64,000 bases of DNA from an uncultured Bryobacterales bacterium (lineage in GTDB: Bacteria > Acidobacteriota > Terriglobia > Bryobacterales > UBA6623). The stretch is taken from positions 726,236-790,235 of the forward strand of contig OY282420.1 of NCBI GenBank assembly GCA_958295955.1, given 5' to 3'. The number at the start of each line of letters is the position of its first letter. Positions within the stretch are counted from its first letter, which is position 1. The position numbers were made by a program. Below are positions 12,501 through 15,500 of this stretch, in pieces.

Positions 12501-15500
12501 TGACGTTCCATTGCTCGGCGCCGCCGCCGCCGAAAAGAATCATTTCCTTGCGGAAGCTCATCGCGCGCACCAGCGGAGCGCCGACGGCCAGGGCCAAGTC
12601 GATGCACCTTTCAAGCTTGACCGTCTGCGCCGCGTAGGCCGCGCCGCCGACCTCGGCGCGGAAAACGTCGAGGCCGCCGAAAATATGGCGCGAGATGCAT
12701 GAAACCCGCATCTCGTAGCGGCCGAGCAAGTCCGCGATGCGCGCTACCTCGGCGTCCGTGTGATCGCCGACTTCCTTGTCCCAAACGAACTGCAACTCCG
12801 CGTGCGTCAGTCCGAACTCGCGCATGACCTCCAGCGCATGCTCGAACTCCCGGTCGATGCCGTCGGTAATCGCTCCCAGCTTGGCCATAGATTCCGTCTT
12901 CCGCTACCAGGTCGCTTGCGTACCCGCGATCCGTTCGAGCAGCTTGACGATCGCCCAGTTATCTTCGTCGGGAAAGAGCGAAACCCCCGACTGGAACATC
13001 TCGTAAACCGCGCTGGTCAAAAACATCGCCGCGCCGTTCTCGTGCGCCAGTCCCAGGCTGATGCCCAAGTCTTTATACATGGTTCCGATGCGGCTGCCCG
13101 TGTCTTTGAACTTGCGGTCGAGGATCATGCGGGCGCAATTCTCGAACATCGGGCTGCCCGCCGCGCCGGAGCCGATGACGTCGAACATTGTCCGGCCGCT
13201 GACGCCGGACTTGGAAGCCAACACGAGCGATTCGGCGGCGGCGGCGAAAGTCGCGCCGATGAAAACCTGCAGCGCCGCCTTGACCGACTGCCCTTGGCCG
13301 ATCTCTTCGCCCACGTGAAAGACCTGCTTCGATACCGCGTCGAGCGCATCCCGATTCGCTTCCAGAACCTCGGGCTTCGCCGCGGCCATCAGGGTCAGCG
13401 CGCCGCCGTCGGCGCCGGCCTTGCCGCCGCTGACCGGAGTGTCGATCATGCCGACCCCCGCCGCGGCCAAAGGCGCTTCGAGGCGCTGCGCCTCGCGCGG
13501 CATCATCGTCGCCGAAACGATCACGGTCGCGCCGGGCTTCAACCCGCGAATCAGTCCGGCGTCGCCGAGCACGGCTTCCCGCGCCTGCGCTCCGCTGAAG
13601 ACCATCACGAACACGGAATCGCATTGTCCGCCCAACTCCCGGCAACTGCCGGCTCGCCGGCCGCCGGCCGCTTCAAGCAGCGCCAACCGCTCTTCGCGCA
13701 GGTCGAACCCGACCAGGGGAAACCCCGCCTTGACGATATTTACGGCCATGGGCAGACCCATGTCGCCGAGCCCGACGAATCCGATTGTTTTCACTTGTTT
13801 CGCCTCCATTGCTAACCGGTAAAGAGCGTTCGCGCGTCCACGAAGCAAATCGGATTGCCGAACGGGTCTTGCCCGTAGAACAGCCGCTCGCCCCAAGGCA
13901 TCTCGGCAATACCGCCGTCAAGCGCTCGAAAGTTCAGCCGCCGGGCCCGCGCGAACAATCCATCGAGGTCTGCGACCGCAAAATAGCAGTATTGGTTCGG
14001 GTGACGCCGCCAACCGCCGCCGCGTCCGTCGCCGTCGGCCTCGGGATCGTAACAGGCGAGGATCGTACCGCCGCAGTCGAAATAGTGCCGCCCCGGCGAA
14101 ACCCGCCTTCCGGGATCGTCGAGCAGCACGGCATAGAACTTCTCGGCAACGGCGATATCGTCGACGGGGAGGATGACGCGATACAGCCGCGCAATCATAA
14201 CCGCCGCAGTATAACAGCCCTGAATCCCCGGACAAGCAATCTTTTGAGAATTTGAAACCTCTTATATATCAATGAGTTGAGAAGTTTGTTGTCGTTTCGG
14301 GGCCATGCCGTCGGTGCAGCGCGGCGGAAACCGGGCATATCAATGAGTTGAGAAGTTTGTTGTCGTTTCGGGAGATACCCTCGGGGGGCGCGGACATGGC
14401 CGGCGGCCGGCGGGAGCAATCGGCTGCGGGCGCGCCGCCGCCGCGGACCGCCTGACAGGGAATTTCCCGCATCTCGAATTTCCTGACCCGGCGCCGCGGT
14501 TTTGCTAACCTCTCGAAGACATGCGCGCGCCGACCGTTCTCGCTACGCTTCTCTTTGCCGCGGCTCTCGCTTGCGGCCCTCAGGCAGACGCTCCCGATGC
14601 CGGCAGCGTCTCGATTACGCACGGCCCCTCGCTGGGCCGCTTGGGGACAAACCATATCGGCGTCTGGGCGCGCACTTCCAGAGCGGCCGCCTTCAACGTT
14701 TTCTACGGCGACGCCCCGGACCGGCTGACGTCCGCGGCGACCGTGCAAACCGATCCGGCAAACGACAACACCGGCTGGGCGCTGATCGAAGGTCTCGCGG
14801 CCGATACCAAATATTTTTACGAAGTCGGTTTGGGGGATGCGCCGGCGGGCGACGCGGAGCGTTCCGGGACGTTCCACACGCTGCCGGACGCCGCGGCGCT
14901 CGAGAGCGAGCACAATCCGCAGGGCCGCTACAACTTCCGCTTCGAGTTCGCCTGCGGCAACAATCAGAACCCCAGCGGAAGCCCGGTCGGCGCCGCGCTG
15001 ACGACTCACGGCACGATGCTCAAAACGCTGATCGGCCGCGAAGCCAAGAGCAAGATAGACTTCGCCATCCTCAACGGCGACTGGCTGTACGAGAACGAGT
15101 CGCGGCTCTACAACCCGGAGCAATGGCGCGCGCAGGCCGGCGTTGACGAGGCGGCGACGCCGCGCGTCGTGCGCCTGATGCCCAGCATCACCGGCGTCTG
15201 GGAGAACTACAAGGATTTCTTCAACAAGGGCAAGAATCTGCGCGACTGGCACCGCAACGTGCCCTCGTACTACACCTTCGACGACCACGAGCTGCTGAAC
15301 GATATCTACGGCTCGGCGGAGCCGGGCAGGCGCAACCGCCGCGCAGTCTTCCGCGACGTGGGCGCCATGGCGTGGTACGACTACCTCGCCTGGAGCAACC
15401 CGACGCCCGAAACCCGCGGCATTGTTTACGGCAAGGCGCAGTTGCAGGCCGGCAGCGATATCCTCACCGACCCCGAAGCGGACTTCACGGGGCTGGACCG

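Follow-up and report, generated by a model that had tools for sequence, protein, structure and literature searches.

What kind of process leaves two perfect copies of a 36-bp sequence on either side of 35 bp of unrelated DNA is the question raised by a short unit at positions 14266-14372 of a 64,000-nucleotide stretch (the window, 64 kb) from an uncultured Bryobacterales bacterium (NCBI GenBank assembly GCA_958295955.1, contig OY282420.1, positions 726,236 to 790,235 of the forward strand). The unit is located in the 322-bp divergent intergenic region that separates a VOC/glyoxalase gene from a PhoD-like phosphatase gene. An earlier note, made from the sequence alone, had described it as an orphan unit resembling a CRISPR array, decayed or nascent, or else as a pair of long protein-binding sites upstream of phoD. 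We argue here that it probably records one off-target ("neo-CRISPR") event, in which a Cas1-Cas2-type integrase inserted a spacer. Of the CRISPR-like interpretation the geometry is thereby retained, as a probable product of the CRISPR adaptation machinery, while neither the array nor the phoD binding-site reading survived the analysis. The unit is composed of the following parts.

14266..14301, + strand: target segment T1 (36 bp, duplicated), left-hand copy; native AT-rich intergenic DNA, present in single copy in L002, L021, L022 and L023
14302..14336, + strand: spacer-like insert of 35 bp, 77% GC; missing from four of the seven strain alleles
14337..14372, + strand: target segment T1, right-hand copy; a perfect match to the left copy
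14267..14279 and again 14338-14350, + strand: left edge of the duplicated 36-mer, where the sequence agrees perfectly with the IHF consensus WATCAANNNNTTR; suggestive only

The 36-mer ATATCAATGAGTTGAGAAGTTTGTTGTCGTTTCGGG occurs exactly twice in the window, with 0 mismatches between the copies at 14266-14301 and 14337-14372, and the edges of both copies are sharp, a mismatch standing directly outside each of them. No further copy was found elsewhere in the window even with 3 mismatches allowed, and 100 dinucleotide-preserving shuffles yielded no match to the 36-mer, again even at 3 mismatches. The 35-mer GCCATGCCGTCGGTGCAGCGCGGCGGAAACCGGGC enclosed by the two copies (14302-14336) is unique in the window. 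The GC content is 39% in the 36-mer, 77% in the insert and 40% in the 40 nt upstream, as against 64% for the window. The description given in the earlier note was thus accurate as to the two perfect AT-rich 36-mers around a unique GC-rich 35-mer, the AT-rich DNA ahead of the unit, and repeat and spacer lengths (36/35/36 bp) which fall in the CRISPR range.

Sister loci, fetched by exact-protein look-up, provided six other contigs from one ENA sample (ERZ19489113) which are ~99% identical to the window, so that the 14266-14372 site could be compared in seven alleles (the window, L002, L020, L021, L022, L023 and L024). The full unit was present in three of them, the window, L020 and L024, of which the last is a circular contig of 4.50 Mb. 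In the remaining four (L002, L021, L022 and L023) the 36-mer is single-copy, and with neither the 35-mer nor a second 36-mer the allele falls short of the carriers by exactly 71 bp. The apparent "repeat" is therefore native intergenic DNA, which stands singly wherever the site is empty. Compared with the window, the 35-mer differs at 1 position in L024 and at 2 in L020, and the left 36-mer copy of L020 carries one point change; a polymorphic base of the insert is G in the window and T in both L024 and L020, the ancestral form of the insert being GCCATGCCGTCGGTTCAGCGCGGCGGAAACCGGGC. Since the carriers share the 35-mer apart from these single nucleotide polymorphisms (SNPs), a single event has been inherited and subsequently mutated. 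Pairwise divergence among the seven strains is 0.7-0.9% and star-like, and the carriers do not form a clade, so that either the event dates far back or recombination has spread it; to judge from these alleles, the 71-bp indel appears to be an old polymorphism in a recombining population. The number of spacers per strain is 0 or 1, the spacer is always the same one apart from its SNPs, and a second was never gained.

The unit is not alone. A short-range direct-repeat scan of the window found two more units of the same geometry, at 34361-34479 and 45410-45519, which the earlier note had overlooked, and a script found a fourth in a sister strain. The four events are as follows.

Event 1, window 14266-14372: duplication 36 bp, insert 35 bp, period 71; VOC/PhoD intergenic region; carried by the window, L024 and L020, not by L002, L021, L022 and L023
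Event (a), window 34361-34479: duplication 37 bp, insert 45 bp (55 in L011 and L012), period 82/92; U32-peptidase-like/RraA-like junction; carried by all three strains (the window, L011 and L012), not by the outgroup L019
Event (b), window 45410-45519, + strand: duplication 38 bp, AT-rich insert 34 bp, period 72; Ser/Thr kinase-PD40 gene, in frame; carried by the window and L011, not by L012
Event (c), L022 15426-15534: duplication 37 bp, insert 35 bp, period 72; 5' part of a SIR2_2 defence-type gene, in frame; carried by L022 only, not by L020 and L021

In event (a), perfect 37-bp copies (34361-34397 and 34443-34479) flank an insert at 34398-34442. The duplicated 37 bp span the U32-peptidase-like gene's stop codon, an 8-nt spacer and the opening six codons of the RraA-like gene, and because the segment covers the stop/start junction both genes have remained intact. 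The insert holds a 10-nt tandem unit TTCGCTTTCC, slippage of which accounts for its length of 55 bp in L011 and L012; we infer that it consists of 35 bp plus extra 10-nt units, the length of 35 bp being reached with two units fewer than in L011 and L012. The outgroup species L019, whose RraA is 88% identical, has a plain, single and uninterrupted U32-RraA junction, therefore the insertion is derived. In event (b), the 38-bp copies (45410-45447 and 45482-45519) and the insert between them (45448-45481) lie within the kinase gene (43095-46016), where the period of 72 amounts to a stop-free, in-frame insertion of 24 amino acids (aa), the kinase being 973 aa long with it vs 949 aa in L012. Event (c) likewise adds 24 aa, in frame and free of stops, to the SIR2_2 gene. 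The events shared between strains have acquired later mutations, the 10-nt slippage in (a) and a point change in one copy. Both coding events thus measure 72 bp, and the lengths at the intergenic and junction sites, 71 and 82/92 bp, are not multiples of 3, a pattern which fits what would be expected if selection filters insertions of variable length. As a separate observation, the kinase gene of L011 (13548-16452) is broken into two open reading frames (ORFs), which may reflect a pseudogene or an assembly frameshift error.

The four duplicated segments are mutually unrelated, and so are the four inserts. No target motif beyond chance was shared by the first three sites (12 identical columns vs 11 +/- 1.2 in shuffles), and the predicted RNA structure of the duplicated segments was unremarkable, with z-scores of -0.74 to +1.36 against shuffled controls. 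The absence of a shared motif or unusual structure in these segments argues that a ruler-type enzyme, rather than the sequence, sets the length. A spacer-sized insert, a local direct duplication and a precise empty allele, the combination by which a neo-CRISPR event can be recognised, were found together at event 1, in the kinase and SIR2 genes and, with the outgroup supplying the empty allele, at the RraA junction; the length of the duplication behaved like a ruler independent of its target, being 36, 37, 38 and 37 bp at four unrelated sites. Insertion with target duplication, documented by empty-site alleles, has thus recurred in this species with constant geometry. No unit of the same geometry was found in ~100 kb of loci from other species.

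As to the enzyme, we infer a Cas1-Cas2-type integrase from the geometry. A fragment of ~35 bp would have been joined by two staggered strand transfers ~36 bp apart to the AT-rich promoter DNA between VOC and PhoD, and gap repair would then have copied the 36 bp between the attack points, producing the look of repeat-spacer-repeat with a "repeat" that is simply local sequence. The same machine would have struck at least three other unrelated sites (the operon junction, the kinase gene and the SIR2 gene), each time duplicating 36-38 bp and adding ~35 bp of unrelated DNA with a period of 71-72 bp, which event (a) would have left through its extra 10-nt units. Such a signature is that of an integrase making two strand transfers at a fixed spacing with fragments of fixed size, which is the chemistry of Cas1-Cas2, whose ruler for repeat length and whose spacer length lie exactly in this range. 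We know of no other integrase or transposase that makes target duplications of ~36 bp, the known ones making 2-15 bp. Off-target integration by Cas1-Cas2 that creates neo-CRISPR loci has been shown in Escherichia coli (Nivala, Shipman and Church 2018, as described in PMC7054753, PMC6698737 and 10.1101/148544), with circumstantial evidence for it in two other species. IHF-like motifs are reported, in PMC9456107, to favour off-target integration. The 36-mer starts with a perfect IHF consensus, TATCAATGAGTTG, besides which the ancestral sequence had only one match in the 64 kb; as the window stands today there are 3 matches to WATCAANNNNTTR, two inside the unit and the third at 48107-48119. We take the consensus at the edge of the 36-mer only as a suggestive hint of integration.

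Several observations weigh against this interpretation and have been taken into account in its strength. The IHF motif sits within the duplicated segment, not in the position of a leader, and the other three sites are without any. Neither the 64 kb window nor ~250 kb of sequence from related loci yielded a cas gene or a CRISPR array. Four events in ~70 kb are far above the rare off-target rate reported for E. coli, and this density may point beyond ordinary Cas1-Cas2. No protospacer was recovered for any of the four inserts, all searches being non-significant: their sources were not found in the window or the related loci, nor, as exact sub-patterns, in IMG/VR, and blastn of the inserts against INPHARED phages and PLSDB plasmids gave a best E of 0.02. 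A scan of the genome collection with a 20-mer of insert 1 returned 6 chance matches, with only 21-28 of the 35 positions alike; this 20-mer carried the window's G at the polymorphic base, so a protospacer with T would be missed. The comparison of the spacer with viral and plasmid sequences, which the earlier note had proposed, accordingly produced no significant match in IMG/VR, INPHARED or PLSDB.

The density of events also invites a bolder, tentative proposal, which we consider a minor possibility, that a spacer-type integrase (Cas1-Cas2 or an unrecognised relative without any array) has been freed from the CRISPR leader and acts as a genome-wide mutator. If this were true, fragments of ~35 bp with target duplications of ~37 bp would be expected at the order of one per 15-20 kb, and they would supply the population with segregating indels, with 24-aa in-frame protein insertions and possibly with the seeds of new arrays.

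The same observations would suit a process of another kind, either an undescribed integrase or mobile system with an insert of ~35 bp and a stagger of ~37 bp, or end-joining which captures filler DNA at long staggered breaks, since there are no cas genes in the window or related loci, the events are more numerous than expected for off-target Cas1-Cas2, and neither a protospacer nor a protospacer adjacent motif (PAM) nor a target motif was found. We nevertheless regard such a process as unlikely. Random staggered breaks with filler would not give a constant duplication of 36-38 bp and an insert of 34-35 bp four times, and both lengths are precisely those of many CRISPR systems. To our knowledge, no integrase that inserts ~35 bp with a ~37 bp stagger has been described. 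The footprint of a transposable element was considered separately and rejected, as the duplications of 36-38 bp exceed the insert in length and no ends are common to the inserts.

Much less probable is a genuine minimal CRISPR array, nascent or decayed, in which the 36-mer would be the functional repeat and the AT-rich upstream DNA the leader, with cas genes elsewhere in the genome. It would account for the 36/35/36 geometry and the AT-rich upstream flank, and the strains do differ by exactly one spacer plus one repeat, as they would after canonical acquisition. The 36-mer itself does not behave as a CRISPR repeat. Its central 21-mer, which was used for the search, was not found in 185,579 species genomes or in IMG/VR viral contigs, and the JGI metagenomes held a single chance match, in a coding region of an AT-rich phage-like contig; a search for the repeat elsewhere, which the earlier note had suggested, thus led to no array carrying it in these genome, viral and metagenome collections. 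Comparison with known repeats, also suggested there, gave no match to any Rfam CRISPR-DR family or to another relevant Rfam family, either at the gathering threshold in the window or at E<=10 at the locus. There is no hairpin in the 36-mer, and no cas genes were found in the window or the sister-strain loci. Over a strain divergence of ~0.8%, during which SNPs arose in the spacer itself, the unit has not grown beyond a single spacer. Finally, the three other units use unrelated "repeats", two of them coding, which a repeat-specific model cannot explain. The decayed or nascent array of the earlier note, built on a CRISPR repeat, is therefore abandoned, and a bona fide CRISPR array was rejected as a candidate on the grounds that the 36-mer matched no repeat of a multi-spacer array in the collections searched and that the other units duplicate unrelated sequences. 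Because there are no cas genes nearby, no recognisable repeat for processing of CRISPR RNA (crRNA) and no further spacers gained, the unit is most likely inert as immunity.

Its position between two divergent genes brings in a further reading, in which the 36-mers would be a pair of long sites, operators or promoters, serving phoD or VOC, that arose by tandem duplication or slippage. The two genes are as follows.

13812..14198, - strand: VOC/glyoxalase-family gene (Pfam PF00903); an identical protein is present in a sister strain
14521..16404, + strand: PhoD-like phosphatase gene (Pfam PF09423); homologues were found

The divergent promoter location speaks for such a duplicated regulatory element, as do the IHF consensus and a TTGAGA hexamer within the 36-mer, and the sole relevant output of a promoter/terminator scan was a promoter-like site for the VOC gene, just outside the unit. 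We consider it highly improbable all the same, as four of the seven strains make do with a single copy, the 35-mer is missing from the empty allele, so that no pre-existing DNA was duplicated in tandem, and the same structure also occurs inside coding genes. Outside this species, orthologues of phoD and VOC stand next to other genes and lack such a motif: the 36-mer motif was not found upstream of either, and among phoD orthologues of 81-89% identity the upstream conservation is limited to ~30 nt at the start codon. The paired protein-binding sites that the earlier note had placed upstream of phoD are not borne out, given the single copy in four of the seven strains and the lack of the motif upstream of phoD orthologues. 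Of the refuting conditions set in the earlier note, the absence of the repeat from any array found was borne out, and conservation upstream of phoD was not. Two related candidates had been tried and rejected, a tandem duplication or replication slippage because the 35-mer is missing from the empty alleles and from all related sequence searched, and a conserved phoD cis-regulatory direct repeat (Pho-box-like) because of the single-copy strains and the differing neighbours of the orthologues. An assembly or sequencing artefact, for which one could cite that the related contigs are seemingly long-read metagenome assemblies (judged by contig names), is extremely improbable, since three contigs, assembled independently, share the event-1 insertion together with SNPs of its own and the other events are also common to several contigs, with later mutations (the 10-nt slippage and the point change).

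Comparison with the loci of relatives (L003-L010) showed that the adjacency of VOC and PhoD (intergenic region 14199-14520) is peculiar to this species; in the relatives the gene preceding phoD is a Peptidase_M49 gene, and a Peptidase_M50 gene precedes that for VOC. As their neighbours differ there, the VOC-PhoD intergenic region is a rearrangement junction, and because the adjacency is species-specific there is no outgroup for the 14266-14372 site. Any effect of the unit is likely confined to rearranging the divergent VOC/phoD promoter region by 71 bp. The genes of the window around the unit code for sulfatases, TonB receptors with CarboxypepD_reg domains, enolase, PFK and FtsK, which suggests that these surroundings are a chromosomal core region of an acidobacterium; named homologues of the window proteins are few and belong mostly to Bryobacterales or Acidobacteriota by annotation. 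In L021 the PhoD gene (7868-9749) is broken into three ORFs, which may again be a pseudogene or an assembly frameshift error.

Some other features of the region were noted in passing. At window positions 1704-1815 there are three 32-nt direct repeats with a 40-nt period, each with the palindrome TTAAAGGCTGCCTTTAA, which resemble an array of operators or iterons and stand directly upstream of a SoFic-type Fic gene (1811-2983). This gene belongs to a variable defence island (window 1800-9000), which comprises SoFic, the specificity subunit of a type I restriction-modification (R-M) system and a protein of 1327 aa in which a HigA-like helix-turn-helix (HTH) N-terminus is the only recognisable domain. 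In L002 and L020-L024 the same island (~15200-20387) holds SIR2_2 proteins (595-1192 aa) together with an unknown protein of ~570-600 aa, or both sets. A 568-aa defence-island protein of L024 contains, at 17523-17674, a plain 72-nt tandem duplication with two full copies ~90% identical; its period is that of the integration units, but it is of another kind because it has no unique middle segment. Elsewhere in the window (40593-40764), 57-nt coding tandem repeats lie in the gene of a glycine-rich secreted protein (40225-40812), and their copy number seemingly varies between strains.

Evidence for off-target spacer integration has so far come mainly from engineered E. coli, natural cases being circumstantial. 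If the enzyme is Cas1-Cas2, the unit described here adds a natural case. A wild population that keeps filled and empty alleles for several events would offer natural evidence that seeds of the repeat-spacer-repeat kind arise from ordinary DNA, and it would also reveal a genomic cost of CRISPR adaptation, in that insertions have mutated one kinase gene and one defence gene as well as an operon junction and a promoter region. The molecular ruler of the integrase could then be read from its scars, the prediction from them being that the native repeat measures 36-37 bp and the spacers ~35 bp. For those who run CRISPR finders or curate their output the locus is a warning that a perfect repeat-spacer-repeat unit need never have belonged to an immune array.

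Among known systems the unit is closest in its features to the neo-CRISPR loci left by off-target Cas1-Cas2, with which it shares a spacer-sized insert, a duplication of local non-CRISPR DNA of the length of a repeat, scattered sites and, in one case, an IHF-like motif. It is unlike them in that the duplication is 36-38 bp here vs ~28 bp in E. coli type I-E, and in that the events here are natural, inherited and segregating in wild strains, some of them in frame within genes, and are far denser. Isolated CRISPR repeats and mini-arrays on mobile elements also have one or two repeats around a lone spacer and stand far from cas genes; their repeat is a bona fide one of host type, whereas the 36-mer is native to its locus and matched no known repeat. 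The insertion with direct target duplication and the empty-site allele in relatives recall transposons and casposons. Transposon target duplications are 2-15 bp long (14-15 bp for casposons) and the elements themselves measure hundreds to thousands of bp with defined ends, unlike the events described here, in which the insert is shorter than the duplication and the inserts have nothing in common. Canonical leader-proximal spacer acquisition, like these events, adds exactly one spacer and one repeat copy, and long-repeat CRISPR systems typically have lengths of 36 and 35 bp (types I-B, I-D, I-G and III). The difference is that the sequence duplicated here is not a CRISPR repeat and changes from site to site, with no array, adjacent cas genes or growth.

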